Assembly: GCA_050011875.1 (NCBI GenBank)
Contig: JBEKIG010000019.1
Location: 1 to 26,972 of the forward strand
Direction of reading: 5' to 3'
DNA from: Nitrososphaeria archaeon
GTDB taxonomy: Archaea; Thermoproteota; Nitrososphaeria; JACIWG01
Length of the DNA stretch: 26,972 nucleotides
This document shows positions 421-26,972 of the stretch, one piece after another. The notes beneath the pieces are model-generated. The model made no database searches, was not told the DNA's origin, and was given only the letters and a program-made list of their open reading frames with translations. The position numbers and the translations under genes are program-made. The first letter of the stretch is position 1. Each line of letters starts with the position of its first letter.

Positions 421-2346
421 ATGTATAGGATATTCGGACTCTTACTGATATTGGCGTTGGCCTTCTATCTGGCCTTTATCCCCCATATCGGCTATGCCTA
501 TCCGCTTCATGGGGACGAATGGATGCATATGACCTATGCTGAAACCATTGCCGGGACCGGCGCCATCACTTTTCCCGATCCCTTTACCGGGCTCACCGAG
601 ATAAACCTGGGGGATAACCTCTGGGTGGGCTATCACATACTCTGGGCCATCTTCCAGCAGGTCAGCGGCATAGACTGGATCATCCTTTTTAGGTACTTCC
701 CTTCCATTATATTCATGTTCACCGTCCTGGCTGTCTATATCTTAGCCTCCCGGCAGGGCTACGGTTTGGAGGCCGCCTTCTTTACCTGCCTCATACCTAC
801 CACAGGCGGTTTGCTTGGCCCCGCCTTCATGGTTCCCATGGCTCTGGGCATGCTCTTCATCCCGCTATCGATGTTTCTCGCCTTTAATATCAAGACGTGG
901 CCGTCCTATCTGTTGATATTTCTCTTTACCACTTACCTATTAGTATCCCACGCTACAACTGCCATAGTGCTGTGTATCATTCTCGCTCCTTACATCCTGT
1001 TAAATATCAAGGGGAACATCCGGCACGCTGCGGGAGTGTTGTCTGGCCTCGTTCTGCCATTTGCCCTGTCATTGCCCTGGACTTTCCAGATAGCGGTTCA
1101 GACCGCCCGGCAATTGCTGGTACCCCAGTACTTCTCGCCTTATATTGTGTTGCCTGATCTTCTTTGGAAGTACGGATTGATACCGGTCGCTTTCAGCTTC
1201 ATCGGTACCGTCATATTAGTAATAAAGGGCGGTAAGAAGAATCTTGGTTTGGTGCTCGGGCTGGCTTTGTTGCTCCTCATCATGCTTCTATTTATCAGGT
1301 TCCATTACGGTTTGTCCACAGTATATGAACGTGGTCTGACAGCTATGCTGTTAATGTTGAGCATTATAGCAGGCGCAGGATTGTTCTGGGTGAGGAAGCT
1401 AAAGCTACCTGCTGCGTTTCTTAAGAAATACAGATCAACAATTTTCACGGTCGCCGCGCCCGTCGTCTCAGTGTTGCTCTTGGCCGTCGTACTTGCCGTC
1501 GCCATCCCCACCAGGCTCAACGCATCTTTTTACCACATGATCGACGATCAAGACTACCGGGCATTCATATGGATAAAAGATAACGTCGCCGAGGATTACT
1601 CAACTGCCATGTTAGATCCGTGGAAAGCAACAGCCTTTAGCGCGGTCGCTATGAAAAATGCCCTGCATAGGATATGGATGAACCAGGAGCCGGTCGATGA
1701 TTCTATATACCAATTTCTGAACGGCGGAGGCAGCGGAACCACTTTTTTTCAAGACAATAAAGTATCCTTCGTCTATAACCGGCTGCCATGTAGTAGTCCC
1801 GATCTGATAGAAGTGAGCAATAATATTTTTCTCACCAATCCCAATATATCAACCAGTTTTGCTGTGAAAGCTGATCTGCAAAATGGCGGATTTGAGGCCG
1901 TCTATGGCACACCGCCTGCGTACTGGGGTCAATGGTTACAGAATTGCCAGCCATTATTCCTGTTTCCACAGCCGGGTAGAAACGGGGGTACCAGTGCAGC
2001 TATTAGAATATCAGAAATAGGATCATTTAACCCATGGCCTCAAGCTATCTGGACACAAAATGTGCCGGTTGAGGCAGGCAAATCATATATTATAGGGGGT
2101 TGGATAAAAACTGATAATATCACCGGTGAGAATGGAGCTTCAATTGTTCCTGATTGGAAAGGTCCCGGGAATGTTTTTCTCGGGGCGACCCCAATTATGA
2201 AACAACTCAAGGGCACTAACGACTGGATGTATTATCAGGGAAAAGTAATTGCTCCACTCGGGGCAACCGCGTGCACCGTTTGCTGCTCGATAAGCGGAAG
2301 TACAGGCATTGCGTGGTTTGATGATATGGTATTCAAAGAGCAATGA
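421..2346 (+). CDS. multi-pass membrane protein, putative GT-C-fold glycosyltransferase with C-terminal carbohydrate-binding-like domain
   Basis: About 10 or more hydrophobic segments. Acidic DE pair (HGDEW) in the first loop after TM1, as in GT-C enzymes. The C-terminal ~155 aa carry LQNGGFE...VEAGKSYIIGGWIKT...GTNDW...AWFDD, a CBM4/9-like pattern. Confidence 0.6.
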   Translation: MYRIFGLLLILALAFYLAFIPHIGYAYPLHGDEWMHMTYAETIAGTGAITFPDPFTGLTEINLGDNLWVGYHILWAIFQQVSGIDWIILFRYFPSIIFMFTVLAVYILASRQGYGLEAAFFTCLIPTTGGLLGPAFMVPMALGMLFIPLSMFLAFNIKTWPSYLLIFLFTTYLLVSHATTAIVLCIILAPYILLNIKGNIRHAAGVLSGLVLPFALSLPWTFQIAVQTARQLLVPQYFSPYIVLPDLLWKYGLIPVAFSFIGTVILVIKGGKKNLGLVLGLALLLLIMLLFIRFHYGLSTVYERGLTAMLLMLSIIAGAGLFWVRKLKLPAAFLKKYRSTIFTVAAPVVSVLLLAVVLAVAIPTRLNASFYHMIDDQDYRAFIWIKDNVAEDYSTAMLDPWKATAFSAVAMKNALHRIWMNQEPVDDSIYQFLNGGGSGTTFFQDNKVSFVYNRLPCSSPDLIEVSNNIFLTNPNISTSFAVKADLQNGGFEAVYGTPPAYWGQWLQNCQPLFLFPQPGRNGGTSAAIRISEIGSFNPWPQAIWTQNVPVEAGKSYIIGGWIKTDNITGENGASIVPDWKGPGNVFLGATPIMKQLKGTNDWMYYQGKVIAPLGATACTVCCSISGSTGIAWFDDMVFKEQ

Positions 2347-22262: not shown

Positions 22263-23522
22263 CTACCAGCAAATTCCCTCGTATATCTTAGCCTCTCTGG
22301 CCTTGAGCACCCTTCTACCATCTATGACTATCTTGCCGCGGTAATCCAGCGTGTTGAACTCATCCCATTCAGTTAATATCATTACGGCGTCTGCCATTAG
22401 AACCTCATCAGCCGTGGCATATTTTACCGAGTCGGGGAATATTTTCCGAAAATTCGGCATTGCCTGGGGATCATAAGCGGTAACTCTGGCTCCCTCTTCT
22501 TGCAGGGCACGAATTATTTCGATGGCCTTCGATTTCCTGACGTCATCGGTATCCGCTTTAAAGGCTAATCCCAGTATGCCAATCGTCGCGCCTTTCAATA
22601 CCGGGATATGCTTTTTAAGTATGGCCAACATCCTCATGGGTTGATTATGGTTCAGCCTCTGGACCTCCTCCAGGATCCGCGCACGGTAATTGGTATCCTT
22701 TGCACTTGATATTAATGCCGATAAATCCTTGGGCAGACAGAAACCGCCGAATCCTATCCCGGCATTTAGGTAGTCTTTACCGATGCGAGAGTCTAAGCCC
22801 ATCCCTTTAGCCACCTCATAAACATCCATGCCAAGGCTCTTGCATATATTGCCTATTTCGTTAATAAAGGAAACCCGGGTTGCCAGGTAGGCGTTGGATG
22901 CCTGCTTTATCATTTCAGCGGTGCTAAAGTCAGTTCTCATAATGGGCGCTTTGTAATCTTTATAGACCTCAGCAAGCATGTCGCCCCATTTTTCATTTTT
23001 CTCGCCGATGACAATCCGGCTGGGTTTCATAAAATCCTCGACCGCAGTTCCTTCCCGTAAAAACTCCGGGTTTACACAGATCCCCACATAGTCATTATGG
23101 TTTAAAATCGGTACGATAACTTGCTCGGTGGTGCCGGGGACAACGGTACTTCTTACCACGACAAGGTGATCGCTTTTCTTTTCTTTCAGCACTGCTCTCA
23201 ATTGCTTAGCAGGCTCTTCCAGGAAGAAGAGATCAATGGAGCCATCCGCTTTTGGTGGAGTACCTCCGCAAAGAAAGGTGATATCCGTGTCTAAAGCCTG
23301 CCTGTGGTCCGTTGTAGCAAATAAATTAACATCCTTTAATGCAGAGCTCAAGCCCTCTTCATAGATGGGGCAGGTACCGTCGTTTATTTTTCGTACTTTC
23401 TCCGGATCGATATCTATGCCGATAACTTTGTGGCCTTTTAACGCGAAGCCAACCGCCGTTGTGAGGCCTACAACCCCTAATCCGATTACGCTTATTGTCT
23501 TTTTCCCATTTTTCTTGGACAT
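22263..23522 (-). CDS. ugd: UDP-glucose 6-dehydrogenase (UDP-glucose/GDP-mannose dehydrogenase family)
   Basis: GLGVVG, STVVPGT, NPEFLREG, AEMIK, GFGGFCLPKD (catalytic Cys) and GLAFKADTDDVR. Confidence 0.92.
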   Translation of the reverse strand: MSKKNGKKTISVIGLGVVGLTTAVGFALKGHKVIGIDIDPEKVRKINDGTCPIYEEGLSSALKDVNLFATTDHRQALDTDITFLCGGTPPKADGSIDLFFLEEPAKQLRAVLKEKKSDHLVVVRSTVVPGTTEQVIVPILNHNDYVGICVNPEFLREGTAVEDFMKPSRIVIGEKNEKWGDMLAEVYKDYKAPIMRTDFSTAEMIKQASNAYLATRVSFINEIGNICKSLGMDVYEVAKGMGLDSRIGKDYLNAGIGFGGFCLPKDLSALISSAKDTNYRARILEEVQRLNHNQPMRMLAILKKHIPVLKGATIGILGLAFKADTDDVRKSKAIEIIRALQEEGARVTAYDPQAMPNFRKIFPDSVKYATADEVLMADAVMILTEWDEFNTLDYRGKIVIDGRRVLKAREAKIYEGICW

Positions 23523-23615
23523 TGTTCGCCGCGCTCCCCTTTGCTCAGGTCTATATATAGTAAAGATGTTATATTTTTGTTATGCGTCTATCGCCTGTGC
23601 AAATCTAAGACTTTA

Positions 23616-23644
23616 AGATTACAGTATAGCCCAGTCTCTGTCAA
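23616..23644 (-). promoter_or_regulatory. putative sigma70 promoter of the long - strand glycan operon
   Basis: On the - strand: perfect TTGACA (23644-23639), 17 bp, TAATCT (23621-23616), ~95 bp upstream of ugd. Confidence 0.5.
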
Positions 23645-23692
23645 CTGCATTTTCATAACCAATGGTAACTATTTATATTGTTATTTTACAAC

Positions 23693-23740
23693 GTGGATAG
23701 GACTGTGGATAGGACTATTGTCCCATATTAAGTGGGACTA
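23693..23740. repeat. 12-bp tandem repeat plus inverted repeat, candidate operator
   Basis: GTGGATAGGACT twice (23693-23704, 23705-23716), then GTCCCA-N7-TGGGAC (23720-23738). Confidence 0.6.
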
Positions 23741-23838
23741 TCCGGTGATTCACATCCTACAAGAAGTGATATAAAGTTAGGTAATAGTATATTTACAGTT
23801 ATTTATGAACGTTTTGATATTTATGGAGAGGTAATAAT

Positions 23839-24045
23839 ATGAATATAAACCATCACAAAAGCCTGTTTACGACACGTGAATTAGCACGTCTGCTGAATGT
23901 GCACATTAATACGGTGAGGCGATGGAGCGACCAGGGAATACTTAAGTCCTACCGGATTGGTCCCCGCGGTGATCGTCGTTTTTCCCGGGATGATGTGCTC
24001 GAATTTCTCTCAGAGACCTCAAAACAGCCTGAGACGGTAAATTAG
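23839..24045 (+). CDS. small excisionase/BldC-like helix-turn-helix DNA-binding protein
   Basis: 68 aa: LFTTRELARLLNVHINTVRRWSDQGILKSYRIGPRGDRRFSRDDV, a MerR-like winged-HTH pattern. GGAGAGG SD upstream. Confidence 0.9.
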   Translation: MNINHHKSLFTTRELARLLNVHINTVRRWSDQGILKSYRIGPRGDRRFSRDDVLEFLSETSKQPETVN

Positions 24046-24079
24046 TTATCCGATTGGCCAATATGCGCCTAAACAGAAA

Positions 24080-24140
24080 ACTCCGCCAGGGCTTGGCAGG
24101 CTTCACTGGCGGAGTCTGGCACAGGGAGAAAACCCGTGCT
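24080..24140 (+). ncRNA. putative structured cis-regulatory RNA element, copy 1
   Basis: Stem ACTCCGCCAG/CTGGCGGAGT around GGCTTGGCAGGCT, then stem GGCAC/GTGCT enclosing AGGGAG. Ungapped match to copy 2. Confidence 0.55.
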
Positions 24141-24204
24141 TGCCGTCTATTCTAACAAAGCTTCATAGCCAACTCAACCAATATCGTTCAGATCTCATCA
24201 ATTC

Positions 24205-24281
24205 ATAGCACTTTTGTACTCATTAGCTAATAGTACTTTCTTACCAGCTTAAACATAGTACTTTGCGGCCAATAGTACTTT
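24205..24281 (+). repeat. array of four ATAG(T/C)ACTTT direct repeats, candidate transcription factor sites
   Basis: Copies start at 24205, 24230, 24255 and 24272 (spacing 25, 25, 17). Confidence 0.8.
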
Positions 24282-24310
24282 TAGACCATAGAAAAGGGAC
24301 TAAAACGCTA

Positions 24311-24339
24311 TTCATTATTAATACGATGCAAGTTATATT
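24311..24339 (+). promoter_or_regulatory. putative sigma70 promoter for the secreted-protein gene
   Basis: TTCATT (24311-24316), 17 bp, TATATT (24334-24339), between the repeat array and RNA element copy 2. Confidence 0.35.
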
Positions 24340-24377
24340 GATTGTAGCCCGATAAATAAAGGGCCTGAATATTGAAA

Positions 24378-24437
24378 CTCCGTTGGGGCTTGGCAGGCTT
24401 CGCTGGCGGAGCGGAATACAGGGAGAAAAACCGTGTT
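24378..24437 (+). ncRNA. putative structured cis-regulatory RNA element, copy 2, covering the SD and GTG start of the 24433 gene
   Basis: Stem CTCCGTTGG/CTGGCGGAG with three G-U pairs, then stem AATAC/GTGTT. 47 of 58 nt identical to copy 1 without gaps. Confidence 0.55.
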
Positions 24438-26157
24438 GCGCTTTCATAAGAAGATAAAGCGGTATATAGATTCTGCAAAACGATGTTTTGACTGGTTCAA
24501 CAGTAAGAAACATCAGAAGAGCATTTTTCGGTTAGGTTCTCAAATAATTTTCAGCCTGATCATAGTGGCTCAATTTACAGGAACCTCCGCTGCTTTAGCT
24601 GTCAACACCAACAATATGGATAATGCTCAATCCAGTGGCGGCTATTTACAAGAGAAAAACATCACCTGGGGAGATGGGACTATAGAAGATTTGCGTTTAG
24701 AGTCTGATGGTTATTTTTTACTTAATGGAGTCAAACAGCGATTAGTAGGATTTCATTTCGGTGTACCTACCCCAAAATATGATGAGGAATGGAATCCCAG
24801 CGCAACGGGGAGCAAAACACAGTTCTGGACAACTGAAAACCTTGCATTTCTTGATAATATGTTGAGTTATCTTCAGAGCAAGGGTGTTAGAATAATACGC
24901 ATTCCCCTCGTTTATACCTATCTGGCTTCGACAATAGATGAAGCAAATGCTTATAAGGCATTATTCGACCTAACTGCGAAGCATAAGATGTATGTTGTGG
25001 GGTGGTTGGTGGGAAAATGGTTCACTGGTTTTAATTGTGTACAGCCAACTTCTAATTTTGTAATTCCTGGAGGAACAAATGGCGATACACTTGACACATG
25101 GCTTAATAGATTAGTACCTATAGTTGCACAATATCCTAATATTGTTGTAATGAATTGCGAGAATGAGCTTGATGGACCTTATGAATTTTCCAGTACCACG
25201 ACCTCAAGTGGCAACGTGGGCGGGACAACTATGATTGATACTGCTTTTGGTACAGGTGCAAATAATAAAAATCCTGTCGGGTGGACAATTACAATAACAA
25301 GCGGCGCGTGTAGTGGACAGAGCAGAACAGGTTCGTCTCTAGCCGGCACTACAATGACACTTGCATCGGCTTTCTCTGCGAATATTGTCAGTGGCATAAC
25401 CTACACGGCCAAACAGAACTATTCTGTGGCGGATGCAGTAGCACATTTTACATACTTAAAAAATAAATTTAAGGCATCTATACCAAATATTATGATAACA
25501 CATAATTTTTGTGATGTTACTGTTTACGGCACACCATTTACAAAAGCATTGTTACCGTTACTGGACTTTCCTAGTTTTGATGTCTACGCACTAACTGCTG
25601 GTGATGTAACTACTTTAATATCGAAAATCAAATCTACTTATGGCATAAATAACTTTTGGATGGAGGAGATAGGCCAGGCATCACAATCAGTACCTTATGT
25701 AGATAATACTGCTTTCTCCTCTAGTTTTATTGATAATGCATTTACAGGTGGAGCAACCATTGCAGTGATGTACTGTGCCTTGCATGATTACTGGACAAGT
25801 ATGAGTTTTTTCAATCCCCATGGCGTACCTTCGGCAAATACGGATTCACTTTTGACAAATAATATGGCCACATGGCAAACCGCAATTCCGTCCGGCGCGC
25901 CAGCCATAACCGATTCTACGGGAGCGTCTAACATAACCACCACGGCAGCCACGCTCAACGGCAACCTGACTTCAGACGGCGGGGCTGCTAGCACGGTCAG
26001 CGTCTACTGGGGCGCTACAGACGGCGGTACGACAGCGGCAAGCTGGTCCGGCAATGTCGCCGTGGGCACGCAATCCGTGGGCGCATTTACTGCCAACTTA
26101 ACCGGCCTGACGGCAAGCACGACCTATTACTATGACCAATTCAACGGGAGCGTCTAA
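24433..26157 (+). CDS. secreted protein with a clan GH-A-like glycoside hydrolase domain and the first FN3-like repeat; probably the 5' part of a longer gene
   Basis: Basic N-region, hydrophobic stretch and AALA cleavage-like site. FLLNG, GVRIIRIP, NCENE (acid/base-like), SFDVY and WMEEIG (nucleophile-like). Ser/Thr-rich repeat at the end. Confidence 0.6.
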   Translation: MLRFHKKIKRYIDSAKRCFDWFNSKKHQKSIFRLGSQIIFSLIIVAQFTGTSAALAVNTNNMDNAQSSGGYLQEKNITWGDGTIEDLRLESDGYFLLNGVKQRLVGFHFGVPTPKYDEEWNPSATGSKTQFWTTENLAFLDNMLSYLQSKGVRIIRIPLVYTYLASTIDEANAYKALFDLTAKHKMYVVGWLVGKWFTGFNCVQPTSNFVIPGGTNGDTLDTWLNRLVPIVAQYPNIVVMNCENELDGPYEFSSTTTSSGNVGGTTMIDTAFGTGANNKNPVGWTITITSGACSGQSRTGSSLAGTTMTLASAFSANIVSGITYTAKQNYSVADAVAHFTYLKNKFKASIPNIMITHNFCDVTVYGTPFTKALLPLLDFPSFDVYALTAGDVTTLISKIKSTYGINNFWMEEIGQASQSVPYVDNTAFSSSFIDNAFTGGATIAVMYCALHDYWTSMSFFNPHGVPSANTDSLLTNNMATWQTAIPSGAPAITDSTGASNITTTAATLNGNLTSDGGAASTVSVYWGATDGGTTAASWSGNVAVGTQSVGAFTANLTGLTASTTYYYDQFNGSV

Positions 26158-26692
26158 CATAACCTCCACGGCAGCCCGACTGAACGGCGAGGTGACGTCC
26201 ACCGGCAATGAGAACCCCACGGTGCATGTATATTGGGGTCCTGCCGACGGTGGAACGATTGTCGCCAACTGGGCGCATGACCTGAACCTGGGTGTCAAAG
26301 GCGCCGGAGTTTTCTACACGGACATAACTGGGCTGACTGCCGGGGCTACATATTACTATCTCTGCATGGCGCAGAACTCTGGTGGGATGACCTGGGCATT
26401 ATCCAGCTCCAGCTTCACCACCTCTGCCCCTGCTCCTCCGCCAGTCACAGCACCAGCCGTGACCAATTCCACAGGAGGATCTAACATTACCACTACAGCA
26501 GCCACGCTCAATGGCAACCTGACCTCGGACGGTGGGGCTGCTAGCACGGTCAGCGTCTACTGGGGCACTACAGACGGCGGTACGACAGCGGCAAGCTGGT
26601 CCGGCAATGTCGCCGTGGGCACGCAATCCGTGGGCGCATTTACTGCCAACTTAACCGGCCTGACGGCAAGCACGACCTATTACTATGTCTAA
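26132..26692 (+). CDS. FN3-like repeat fragment (units B and A'), out-of-frame continuation of the 24433 gene
   Basis: Same repeat family (SNIT..AA.LNG..., VYWG..DGGT, GLTA.TTYYY). No SD or signal peptide; its ATG sits at the junction. Confidence 0.6.
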   Translation: MTNSTGASNITSTAARLNGEVTSTGNENPTVHVYWGPADGGTIVANWAHDLNLGVKGAGVFYTDITGLTAGATYYYLCMAQNSGGMTWALSSSSFTTSAPAPPPVTAPAVTNSTGGSNITTTAATLNGNLTSDGGAASTVSVYWGTTDGGTTAASWSGNVAVGTQSVGAFTANLTGLTASTTYYYV

Positions 26693-26972
26693 CATAGCCA
26701 CCACGACAGCCCGCTTAGATGGCGAGCTGACGGCCACGGGCAATGAGAACCCCACGGTGCATGTATATTGGGGTCCTGCCGACGGTGGAACGACTGCCGC
26801 CAACTGGGCACATGACCTGAACCTGGGGGCCAAGGGTGCCTCATTTTTCTACACGGATATAACGGGGCTGACTGCGGGAACTACATATTATTATAGCTGC
26901 ATGGCGCAGAACTCTGGGGGGATATCCTGGGCATCATCCAGCGCCAGCTTCACCACCTCCGCCCCTGCCCCT
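26685..26972 (+). CDS. FN3-like repeat fragment (unit B'); runs off the right edge
   Basis: Manual translation: MSNIATTTARLDGELTATGNENPTVHVYWGPADGGTTAANWAHDLNLG...YYYSCMAQNSGGISWASSSASFTTSAPAP, open to the window end. Confidence 0.6.
   Translation, partial: MSNIATTTARLDGELTATGNENPTVHVYWGPADGGTTAANWAHDLNLGAKGASFFYTDITGLTAGTTYYYSCMAQNSGGISWASSSASFTTSAPAP

Follow-up and report, generated by a model that had tools for sequence, protein, structure and literature searches.

A repeated leader element and a predicted antisense RNA gene beside a secreted-protein gene

The window analysed here, a stretch of 26,972 nucleotides, carries a gap-free direct repeat (24081-24138 against 24378-24435, with 47 of 58 bases identical in a pairwise alignment), and this locus raises the question of what a copy of a gene's leader does where no gene follows. 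The initial annotation took both copies for the same kind of + strand element. This holds for copy 2, a structured + strand leader in which a secreted-protein gene has its Shine-Dalgarno sequence (SD) and its start codon. It is not supported for copy 1, which has neither a gene nor a + strand promoter and has a minus-strand promoter and a hairpin with a U-run instead. The two are probably not two instances of one control element. Copy 1 looks like a gene for an RNA of about 70 bases from the opposite strand that would be able to pair with the copy 2 leader, and we put the probability that copy 1 encodes an antisense RNA targeting copy 2 at roughly 0.6. What is observed are sequence features and their conservation; that the RNA is transcribed, that it pairs in the cell and which way it acts are inferred.

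The repeat and its relatives

A repeat search of the window recovered the two copies as family D3 (61 nt, 82% identity). At least 47 matches in 58, multiplied over all position pairs in the window, are expected by chance about 5e-7 times. The window's own genome (G000) has two copies of the element and no more, and homologous copies are present in other genomes and in metagenome contigs, so the repeat is no chance event. Its reading as a tRNA-like or att site was set aside because no integrase is present.

The alignment and the structural details first described were reproduced on recount and by direct reading. In stem 1, TTG takes the place of CCA while the TGG facing it stays as it is; both copies have the same apical GGCTTGGCAGGCT; the five pairs of stem 2 all survive the change from GGCAC/GTGCT to AATAC/GTGTT; and AGGGAG and GTG lie within stem 2 in both copies alike. 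The annotation had also suggested checks against Rfam and for homologues. The element has no matching family: release 15 at gathering thresholds returned no matches on either strand of the whole window, and permissive settings around the element gave two chance-level snoRNA matches only (E = 6-8; 14-15 bits against cut-offs of 43-50).

Relatives of the element were found beyond its own genome. A blastn search of copy 2 against 40 relatives of G000 gave chance matches of 14-23 nt only, and model R1 in 151 genomes of the class of G000 and the target protein in 401 genomes of that class each recovered G000 alone. The family surfaced only after the search was re-centred on the order of another genome (G154), and it has members in uncultured Dehalococcoidia, where 16 of the 151 genomes of one order carry related copies. 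For comparison, 33 copies were tabulated and 32 used, L101 being dropped as short and poorly aligned.

Predicted antisense RNA, proposed target leader and likely regulator

The features assigned to copy 1 are as follows.

24080-24139, + coordinates: copy 1, the upstream copy, with no gene behind it
24073..24142, minus strand: predicted antisense RNA of about 70 nt, the transcribed part of copy 1 (both ends estimated, +/- 3 nt)
24149..24177, minus strand: sigma-70-type promoter with -35 TTGAGT (24177-24172), 17-nt spacer, TGT extension (24157-24155) and -10 TAGAAT (24154-24149), from the promoter scan ('TG before second hexamer')
24070..24115, minus strand: terminator-like hairpin with a 10-bp Watson-Crick stem (24080-24089 with 24106-24115) and a 16-nt loop, then UUUUCUGUUU, from the terminator scan and fold
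24119..24139, minus strand: 5' hairpin of the antisense RNA with anti-start (CAC) and anti-SD (CUCCCU), a 7-bp stem GCACGGG/CCUGUGC in the fold

On the minus strand, copy 1 has TTGAGT-17 nt-TGTTAGAAT upstream and the 10-bp hairpin and U-run downstream; the RNA start was placed 7 nt past the -10 and its end in the U-run after the hairpin. The predicted RNA folds as two hairpins (-30.9 kcal/mol). The annotation had proposed a search for a trans RNA containing CCUGCCAAG, and the predicted minus-strand product of copy 1 is such an RNA. The hairpin at 24070..24115 is the sole terminator-like site found by a scan of 23500-24700. Its stem is G+C-rich, and it is atypical as a terminator, having a 16-nt loop, with a sub-stem alone recognised by the scan. 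The U-run is weak in three of eight copy-1 loci, and the A-rich 5' flank is common to copy-2-type elements also (U in the first 8 nt about 5.4 versus about 4.4, by our averaging). On the + strand, copy 1 lacks the promoter found before every copy-2-type element, and the frame behind it has 10 codons.

Copy 2 and the gene that it precedes comprise the following.

24311..24339, + strand: putative target-gene promoter, TTCATT (24311-24316), 17 nt, TATATT (24334-24339), with a predicted start near 24346
24347..24364, + strand: small GCCC/GGGC hairpin where the leader is predicted to begin (5' end), read from the sequence
24377..24437, + strand: copy 2 leader element, the proposed antisense target (fold; model R1, 80 bits)
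24377-24386 with 24403-24412, + strand: hairpin 1 of copy 2, with three G.U pairs (fold)
24415-24419 with 24433-24437, + strand: hairpin 2 of copy 2 (fold)
24421-24426 and 24433-24435, + strand: SD AGGGAG and start codon GTG, within copy 2
24433..26157, + strand: target gene (ORF) for a secreted protein whose long basic N-region and signal peptide are followed by FN3-like repeats

The TTCATT-17-TATATT arrangement scored below the promoter-scan threshold; in copy-2-type loci TATATT is invariant and lies 17 nt past a TTnAnT hexamer, with a variable spacer. The hairpin at the 5' end of the leader is kept in relatives as GCCCGATAAATACAGGGC. A sigma-54 promoter in GGCTTGGCAGGCTTC was rejected by eye because its GG and GC elements are out of the required register. 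The SD and start codon do lie within stem 2, as first described, with a sequestration that is weak (five pairs, of which three are A-U and one G-U; copy 2 fold z = -1.3). The statement that the stem works only as + strand RNA is right for copy 2 and wrong for copy 1, whose stem is purely Watson-Crick like those of all copies with an antisense promoter. Among the functions originally offered, that of an antisense target is the role now proposed for copy 2.

The target ORF has 574 aa in the window and no Pfam match, and a 991-aa version on contig L034 has FN3-like domains. The window is shorter than L034 by 97 and 119 nt in the target gene, which is truncated here because of an assembly difference. 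Searching 5.8 billion proteins with the target gave three matches without useful names, and the ESM Atlas gave glycoside hydrolase and FN3 clusters at scores of up to 0.79, which are leads only.

Two features upstream of these may concern regulation.

23839..24045, + strand: 68-aa stand-alone MerR/excisionase-type HTH protein (HTH_17, by Pfam)
24205..24281, + strand: four direct repeats ATAG(T/C)ACTTT starting at 24205, 24230, 24255 and 24272

The 68-aa protein has HTH_17 and MerR domains only (Pfam 6e-13 and 2e-8, respectively) and is likely the transcription regulator of the locus. Its best solved relatives are MerR N-domains. A homologue adjoins the target-type gene in most related loci, often divergently, and AGTAC-type repeats precede the + strand promoter in related loci; the four direct repeats are a candidate operator for the HTH protein. 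A 419-aa ORF upstream encodes a UDP-glucose dehydrogenase (Pfam). Two contigs from metatranscriptome run X1 (85-95% alike, without strand information) cover 23727-23940 and 24187-24303 only; as they come from a relative, are unstranded and leave copy 1 uncovered, they are uninformative on copy 1.

In the proposed mechanism, the secreted-protein mRNA would start at the + strand promoter with a leader made up of the small 5' hairpin, the long hairpin and the weak SD/GTG hairpin. Copy 1 would be a separate small minus-strand gene, giving a transcript of about 70 nt from its TTGAGT-17-TGTTAGAAT promoter, with the anti-start/anti-SD hairpin at the 5' end followed by the complement of the long hairpin, which together with the U-run would serve as terminator. 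This RNA would be complementary to copy 2 from the long hairpin through the start codon and, by analogy with known antisense RNAs, may pair with the leader, perhaps beginning between the two fully complementary 16-nt loops. Pairing would block ribosome binding, mark the duplex for cleavage, or both. The duplex predicted between the copy-1 RNA and copy 2 has an energy of -116 kcal/mol, versus -45 +/- 4.6 for shuffled sequences. Genome by genome, no co-variation of copy 1 with copy 2 was seen (mean duplex energies of -122 kcal/mol for cognate and -119 for non-cognate pairs).

Conservation and alternative readings

The minus-strand promoter distinguishes the copies. TGTTAGAAT and its 17-nt spacing are found at all eight copy-1 loci, with TGTTAGAAT identical and the spacer sequence variable, and every one has a TAnnAT-type -10 at 10-12 nt past the start codon. 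The -10 is also present in six of seven distant leader copies (TATTAT, TAAAAT, TACAAT), at 7-10 nt in three of four gene-less orphans and in the upstream copies on L106 (TATAAT) and L105 (TATACT, by eye), and in none of 13 copy-2-type copies. Variation in the hexamer is confined to positions 3-4; the background of TGNTANNAT is 60 in 144,442 nt. The promoter scan reported minus-strand promoters in L041, L095 and L106 too, the last being TTGACT-18-TATAAT with 11 of 12 matches. In the distant relatives L095-L098 and L068 the -10 lies 10 nt past the target start codon, which places the antisense promoter within the first target codons, so the RNA would be cis-encoded there; third codon positions are among the conserved -10 bases in these genes, and the encoded amino acids differ. 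A -35 at the optimal 17-18 nt is found in gene-less copies only, and the distant genes have TTGAC just 7 nt from the -10. The terminator scan did not report the long-loop hairpin in L095 and L106 because its loop limit is 8 nt. Some genomes with a leader of the copy-2 type (G523 and G489, and contigs L052/L055) have neither a copy 1 nor an internal antisense promoter, which means either that the leader functions without the RNA or that the RNA gene was missed.

The stems follow the same division. Of the 171 cells that the 9-bp core of the long stem gives in the 19 copies with an antisense promoter, 167 are Watson-Crick, none is G.U, three are A.C and one is other; of the 117 cells in the 13 copies without it, 97 are Watson-Crick, 13 G.U, five A.C and two other. 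An A.C cell in the + strand stem is a G.U pair on the minus strand. Copies bearing G.U on the + strand number 0 of 19 versus 6 of 13 (Fisher p = 0.002, a figure that overstates independence because the copies are related by descent). Copy-1 stems are perfectly Watson-Crick over all nine pairs in seven of eight loci, with one mismatch in L041, at the end next to the loop. The 19 RNAs predicted from the minus strand fold alike into two hairpins: 97.8% of cells are paired, both sides have changed in 7 of the 20 pairs, and the covariation score is 0.239. Not one of 500 shuffles reaches any of these three values, and the 5' hairpin is conserved with compensatory changes across all 19. The leaders of L095-L098 and L068 fold better on the minus strand by 5.6-11.5 kcal/mol; in the short L101 the strands differ by only 1.6.

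Copy 1 is about 2 kcal/mol more stable on the + strand, so its folding energy by itself is no argument for the minus strand; its z-scores are -3.2 on the minus and -2.9 on the + strand. Both copies may instead be + strand RNA: a cis-regulatory element present twice, to which a protein or ligand would bind, with copy 1 a second site or decoy in the 3' UTR of the HTH mRNA or before a short leader peptide. Both copies do fold on the + strand, and an apical 5-bp stem with G.U, nearly invariant, forms on that strand only, its pairing surviving A/G changes and, in L104, a double change of U.G to G-C. Copy 1 is probably included in + strand read-through transcripts as well, there being no terminator between the HTH stop codon and copy 1. 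On 14 copies the + strand fold pairs in 93% of cells, with double changes at only two pairs, a result that 215 of 500 shuffles equal. We nevertheless consider this reading unlikely. It leaves unexplained the conserved TTGnnn-17-TGTTAGAAT behind copy 1 and the conserved block that ends at the -35; the frame after the copy 1 GTG has 4-44 codons in relatives, and in L041 the nucleotides are kept across a 1-nt insertion; and G.U pairs possible on the + strand only never occur in copy-1-type copies. AUACAGGGA resembles the CsrA site consensus, but a CsrA/RsmA-binding leader or decoy was rejected, as PF02599 was found in none of five genomes (G000, G154, G414, G475, G441) by a search that was positive in E. 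coli, B. subtilis and T. maritima.

That copy 1 is a functionless, decaying stub of a duplicated gene start (leader and first codons), with its antisense promoter a relic of an ancestral cis-antisense arrangement, seems quite improbable. The bases after the copy 1 GTG (TATTCTAACAAAGC...CTCAA) do resemble codons 4-12 of the distant targets, for example TTTATTGTAACACAGGAGTCAAG in L098, and gene-less orphans with short frames exist (L094, L099, L100, L108), of which L094 no longer has the -10 and has acquired G.U pairs. Decay does not fit a block from the hairpin to the -35 that is 84% identical over eight loci, above the adjoining HTH coding core (77%) and far above the 60-nt flanks (51-58%), nor the Watson-Crick stems, the invariant TGTTAGAAT and the optimal -35 spacing that is confined to gene-less copies. 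Strand-neutral covariation of the long stem over 26 copies, with double changes at five pairs and with G.U and A.C intermediates, together with the DNA-binding protein gene that is always close by, would suit an inverted repeat acting as DNA, an operator palindrome or cruciform bound by the regulator and duplicated into two sites. This is very unlikely: copy 2 in the window is mismatched as DNA at three of ten half-site positions, the element lies within the leader, downstream of the predicted transcription start, and a monomeric MerR/BldC-type protein would have a better candidate operator in the AGTACTTT direct repeats that lie upstream of the promoter; the antisense promoter and the conserved SD/start part in copy 1 would also go unexplained.

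Known systems and possible origin

An antisense RNA encoded by copy 1 would resemble several described regulators. SymR of E. coli is described as a cis-encoded antisense RNA over the 5' end of symE, with its promoter inside the first part of the target coding sequence, and as repressing in trans as well when so supplied (PMC1891008). A SymR-like layout is seen in L095-L098 and L068, where the promoter -10 lies inside the first codons of the target. Unlike SymR, the antisense gene in the window is on a separate diverged copy, 297 nt upstream and 82% identical, and the target is a large secreted protein, whereas symE encodes a small SOS-induced toxin-like product. As in antisense genes of the SymR and RNA-OUT kind, sequence evidence places a promoter of its own (24177-24149) opposite the target sequence, and the complementarity to the target SD and start codon is extended (47/58; -116 kcal/mol predicted). 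RNA-OUT of IS10 (with RNA-IN) and CopA of plasmid R1 (with CopT) are stem-loop antisense RNAs of about 70-90 nt over the translation start region that pair from their loops, and they control transposase and replication genes of mobile elements. Compared with them the loops in the window are unusually long (16 nt), and the hairpin would need to double as terminator.

IstR-1/TisB and OhsC/ShoB are type I toxin-antitoxin loci whose sRNA is encoded in trans, close by. In another such locus, ZorO/OrzO, as reported in PMC3919570 and PMC5397157, the small RNA gene adjoins its target and the RNA pairs with the long 5' UTR of the target. Here too a predicted small RNA gene adjoins the target and is complementary to its 5' leader, but the complementarity spans about 60 nt and not just a short seed, and the RNA gene can be recognised as a duplicate of the target's leader. 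A type I toxin-antitoxin system was rejected, as it needs a small (<~60 aa) hydrophobic toxin and the target, at 574 aa (991 aa in L034), carries a signal peptide and FN3-like repeats. A hydrophobic ORF of about 40 codons is seen in the orphan L108 alone. MtlS of Vibrio cholerae is described as complementary to the 5' UTR of mtlA, and as thought to occlude the ribosome binding site, with proximity of the transcription sites being important (PMC4615234); it is strictly cis-encoded, whereas the family seen here would have cis and nearby trans forms.

The regulator has a possible counterpart in BldC of Streptomyces, described as MerR-like and 68 residues long, lacking dimerisation and effector domains and binding to direct repeats in a head-to-tail manner (PMC5859096). 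Like BldC, the HTH protein in the window has 68 aa and is HTH_17/MerR only, and it lies beside four direct repeats; unlike it, its likeness to the BldC structures 6AMA and 6AMK, compared by sequence, is weak (E = 0.03-0.05).

The literature found on Dehalococcoidia with antisense RNA was unrelated work only. If true, the arrangement would be the first concrete, testable small-RNA circuit for these uncultured bacteria, consisting of a small MerR/BldC-type regulator, a structured leader and an antisense RNA, and controlling secreted proteins beside glycosylation genes. For annotation, it would caution that a direct repeat of a leader may be a small RNA gene on the opposite strand.

The distant relatives would encode the RNA in cis, and the window's lineage and one other would bear it on an upstream copy that has no gene. 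The presence of cis- and nearby trans-encoded forms of seemingly the same RNA in one family would make this a clean natural case of a trans-acting sRNA gene arising by duplication of the 5' end of its target. A fuller scenario is speculative and, taken whole, unlikely: the antisense gene would have been born in the first codons of the target and copied out onto a gene-less stub beside the BldC-like regulator, perhaps separately in the L105/L106 lineage, and the stub promoter would have improved once the coding constraint was gone. Read-through from the regulator would then carry the sense stub as a target mimic that soaks up the antisense RNA, coupling transcription of the regulator to de-repression of secreted-protein synthesis.

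L041 and L046 carry solo copy-1 units with no + strand gene behind. The CTTCATAGC that copy 1 (L034) and the upstream copy on L105 have in common in their promoter spacers was rejected as a sign of common descent, being too weak and differing in register. The layout of the window recurs in the lineage of L105 and L106, where the upstream copy combines a perfect stem and 5-6 U with a -10, and the downstream copy lies at the ribosome-binding site of a protein, with G.U pairs and no -10. The translation of this downstream protein contains, by eye, a subtilase-like motif.

The repeat pair and its setting

The initial annotation reported a duplicated two-hairpin RNA element, and its observation of the repeat is confirmed. 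Positions 24081-24138 and 24378-24435 form an ungapped alignment in which 47 of 58 bases are identical, and a repeat search of the window returns the copies as a 61-nt family of 82% identity; about 5e-7 such pairs are expected by chance over all position pairs of the window, so this is not a chance repeat. The window's genome holds these two copies only. Direct reading of the sequence bears out that CCA in stem 1 becomes TTG opposite an unaltered TGG, that GGCTTGGCAGGCT is the same in both copies, and that stem 2 changes from GGCAC/GTGCT to AATAC/GTGTT with 5/5 pairs retained, enclosing AGGGAG and GTG in each copy. The GTG of copy 2 does start a secreted protein. Rfam gave no family match over the whole window at gathering scores, in line with the original failure to assign a family, and none around the element at E values up to 10. 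The interpretation of the repeat as a translational control element is partly supported: copy 2 is a structured leader at an SD and start codon, but copy 1 has neither a long ORF nor a plus strand promoter.

Features of the window around the element
Upstream, minus strand: two GT2 glycosyltransferase genes and a UDP-glucose dehydrogenase gene
23839-24045, plus strand: HTH_17/MerR-type protein, 68 aa
24080-24139: copy 1, beginning 33 nt past the HTH gene stop codon
24205-24281: four direct repeats ATAG(T/C)ACTTT (24205, 24230, 24255, 24272), upstream of the putative plus strand promoter
Between the direct repeats and copy 2: AT-rich stretch
24377-24437, plus strand: copy 2, then the GTG (24433) of the target gene, encoding a long basic N-region and signal peptide

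AGTAC-type repeats lie beside the small HTH gene in all related loci. In the window their spacing of 25, 25 and 17 nt would be compatible with a BldC-like monomer that binds head-to-tail. The HTH protein, which is a MerR-type domain alone and matched the BldC structures 6AMA and 6AMK weakly (E = 0.03-0.05), probably acts on these repeats.

The target ORF of 574 aa stops at 26157; overlapping ORFs in different frames come next (region 26130-26972). The related locus L034 (Dehalococcoidia bacterium UBA1162), which shows identity to the window across 3.1 kb, is identical until 26133 and then has 97 and 119 additional bases in the FN3-repeat region; its target reads on without a frame break for at least 990 aa. 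The frame breaks in the window are probably tandem repeats (period 535 nt, families D1 and D2) collapsed in assembly.

Relatives and the two kinds of copy

A 20-position pattern, run against a single genome for each prokaryotic species, hit 17 loci. Six of these, from five Dehalococcoidia/Chloroflexota MAGs, are true homologues; the remaining 11 are matches in unrelated coding sequence. L052/L055, L053 and L056 came from a scan of metagenomes. The covariance model R1, built on 14 copies, found no match in 150 other genomes of the class of G000, the window's genome, and matched 16 of 151 genomes in the order of a second genome, G154. The target protein family is present in 13 of 201 genomes of that order, and R1 located more diverged elements immediately before those target genes. 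In all, 33 copies were tabulated. The target protein was not found in 400 other sampled genomes of G000's class. A locus identical to the window's occurs in G414, a member of G154's order, where the family is common. Either the placement of G000 separates it from its real relatives, or the contig was assigned to the wrong bin (contamination of G000 is 4.8%).

Copy-2-type elements always stand at the SD and start codon of a long ORF. Those ORFs that were scanned encode secreted proteins, one FN3-like and one GH28-like. Upstream of them, the window's subfamily has direct repeats of the AGTAC type, the motif GGACTAA...CTATT, and a TTnAnT hexamer with, 17 nt further on, a TATATT that never varies. 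From sequence we read the hexamer pair as a plus strand promoter; the mRNA would then start near 24346, with a leader of 87 nt. Copy-1-type elements lack this promoter, and no long ORF follows them: the frame that begins at their GTG runs for 4-44 codons, and L041 retains the nucleotides across a 1-nt insertion. The HTH gene directly precedes copy 1 in most loci. In L041 and L046 copy 1 stands alone, wedged in with the HTH gene on one side and the end of a minus-strand gene on the other.

By eye, ORFs resembling transposase fragments replace the HTH gene upstream of copy 1 in L045, and copy 1 itself in L052/L055; the module has therefore been reshuffled by mobile DNA in some genomes. In L037 a signal peptidase I gene (915-1541; Peptidase_S26, 9e-38) lies between the HTH gene and copy 1, which fits a secreted-protein locus.

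Minus-strand signals of copy 1

Beyond copy 1, relatives keep only ATTCTAACA and, 17 nt on, (A/C)CTCAA, while the intervening bases vary. Read on the minus strand, these are TTGAGT-17 nt-TGTTAGAAT, a sigma-70-type promoter with an extended -10. A promoter scan reported it at 24177-24149 with a TG flag, and reported the same promoter in L041. In 8/8 copy-1 loci TGTTAGAAT lies 10-12 nt past the start codon and has a TTGnnn hexamer 17 nt away. A transcript would begin about 3 nt beyond the start-codon complement, pass through the anti-SD and the long-hairpin complement, and end in UUUUCUGUUU. In the window's copy 1 the long hairpin has a perfect 10-bp stem and, with UUUUCUGUUU on the minus strand, is the sole terminator-like site that a scan found in 23500-24700. 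The predicted RNAs of 15 such copies (72-78 nt) all contain a 5' hairpin, the long hairpin and a U-rich tail. Identity across eight loci is 84% for the block that reaches from the hairpin to the -35, compared with 77% for the best-conserved 150 nt of the adjoining HTH gene and 51-58% for the block's 60-nt flanks.

Pairs in the 9-bp core of the long stem in 32 copies (short, poorly aligned L101 excluded; stem arm of the L046 copy 1 assigned by hand). The G·U pairs exist on the plus strand only; A·C is G·U on the minus strand
19 copies with the antisense promoter: Watson-Crick 167, G·U 0, A·C 3, other 1
13 copies without it: Watson-Crick 97, G·U 13, A·C 5, other 2

The three G·U pairs of copy 2, originally described as workable only in plus strand RNA, are real; changes of this class are confined to copies that need no minus-strand fold. 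The RNAalifold consensus of the 19 predicted antisense RNAs is two hairpins with 97.8% of cells paired, 7/20 pairs altered on both sides and a covariation score of 0.239, values of which none was attained in 500 shuffles (slid controls pair at 35-48%), although the shared descent of the copies makes these figures and those of the strand test overstate independence. A plus strand covariance model of the kind first suggested, from the first 14 copies, contains only two double changes, a number that 215/500 shuffles attain too.

Proposed antisense pairing and other lineages

Antisense signals recur in a diverged subfamily (L095, L107, L096, L097, L098, L068) that has no second copy. Here a TAnnAT -10 (TATTAT, TAAAAT, TACAAT) lies exactly 10 nt past the start codon, in codons 5-7, with a TGn extension in five of the six loci. 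Variation is confined to hexamer positions 3 and 4; third codon positions are among the conserved bases, but the encoded residues differ (HNST, YCNT, HFSK, NCRT). The first 8 nt past the long-hairpin complement contain 4-7 U, and the minus-strand fold is better by 5.6-11.5 kcal/mol in five elements (all but L107). This layout is that of a cis-encoded antisense RNA, for example SymR (PMC1891008). An antisense -10 occurs in 0/13 copy-2-type elements. L105 and L106 again have two copies, separated by about 200 nt. In the upstream one the stem is perfect, the frame is short, the U-run has 5-6 U, and TTGACT-18-TATACT or TATAAT is present (11/12 promoter matches in the L106 scan). The downstream one lacks a -10, contains 1-3 G·U pairs and provides the RBS of a gene with a subtilase-like motif in its translation, seen by eye. 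Loop and SD-region variants are lineage-specific and common to both copies of each lineage, a pattern that might come from selection for complementarity, from gene conversion or from independent duplication.

We consider it somewhat probable (about 0.6) that copy 1 is an antisense sRNA gene and copy 2 its target leader. The RNA would pair with the leader from the long hairpin through the start codon (predicted duplex -116 kcal/mol vs -45 +/- 4.6 for shuffles), hiding SD and GTG and perhaps creating an RNase III substrate; the effect is assumed to be repression, by analogy with SymR and MtlS. Several points weigh against the antisense reading. No transcript was seen: the one public RNA run gave only two contigs, from a relative, both away from copy 1. 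The terminator-like hairpin has a loop of 16 nt, which is long; L045, L046 and L053 have a weak U-run; and U-richness is fairly high in the complement of copy-2-type elements as well. Copy 1 and copy 2 show no genome-by-genome co-variation, and a copy-2-type leader occurs with neither copy 1 nor an internal -10 in genomes G523 and G489 and in contigs L052/L055. An apical 5-bp stem with two invariant G·U pairs and one U·G to G-C double change (L104) forms on the plus strand only, so the leader has its own plus strand structure. An antisense regulator of a well-known kind, with none described in the window's lineage, is the most likely reading; a literature search on Dehalococcoidia and antisense RNA found no related report.

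Orphan copies also occur. In L108 (genome G459, about 1560-1690, plus strand) a gene-less copy carries an antisense -10 (TGTTAAAAT), and a hydrophobic ORF of about 40 codons comes after it, an arrangement that superficially resembles a type I toxin-antitoxin pair; the orphans L099, L100 and L094 have frames of 5-22 codons only. L068 (G154 C1:136695-136766) is a paralogous leader in which a C-G to U-A double change leaves the long stem intact. The loop of L068, ATTAGCTTCGCGGGCCGG, is wholly different, so it would not pair loop-to-loop with the copy-1 RNA of G154, and it carries its own internal -10, TACAAT.
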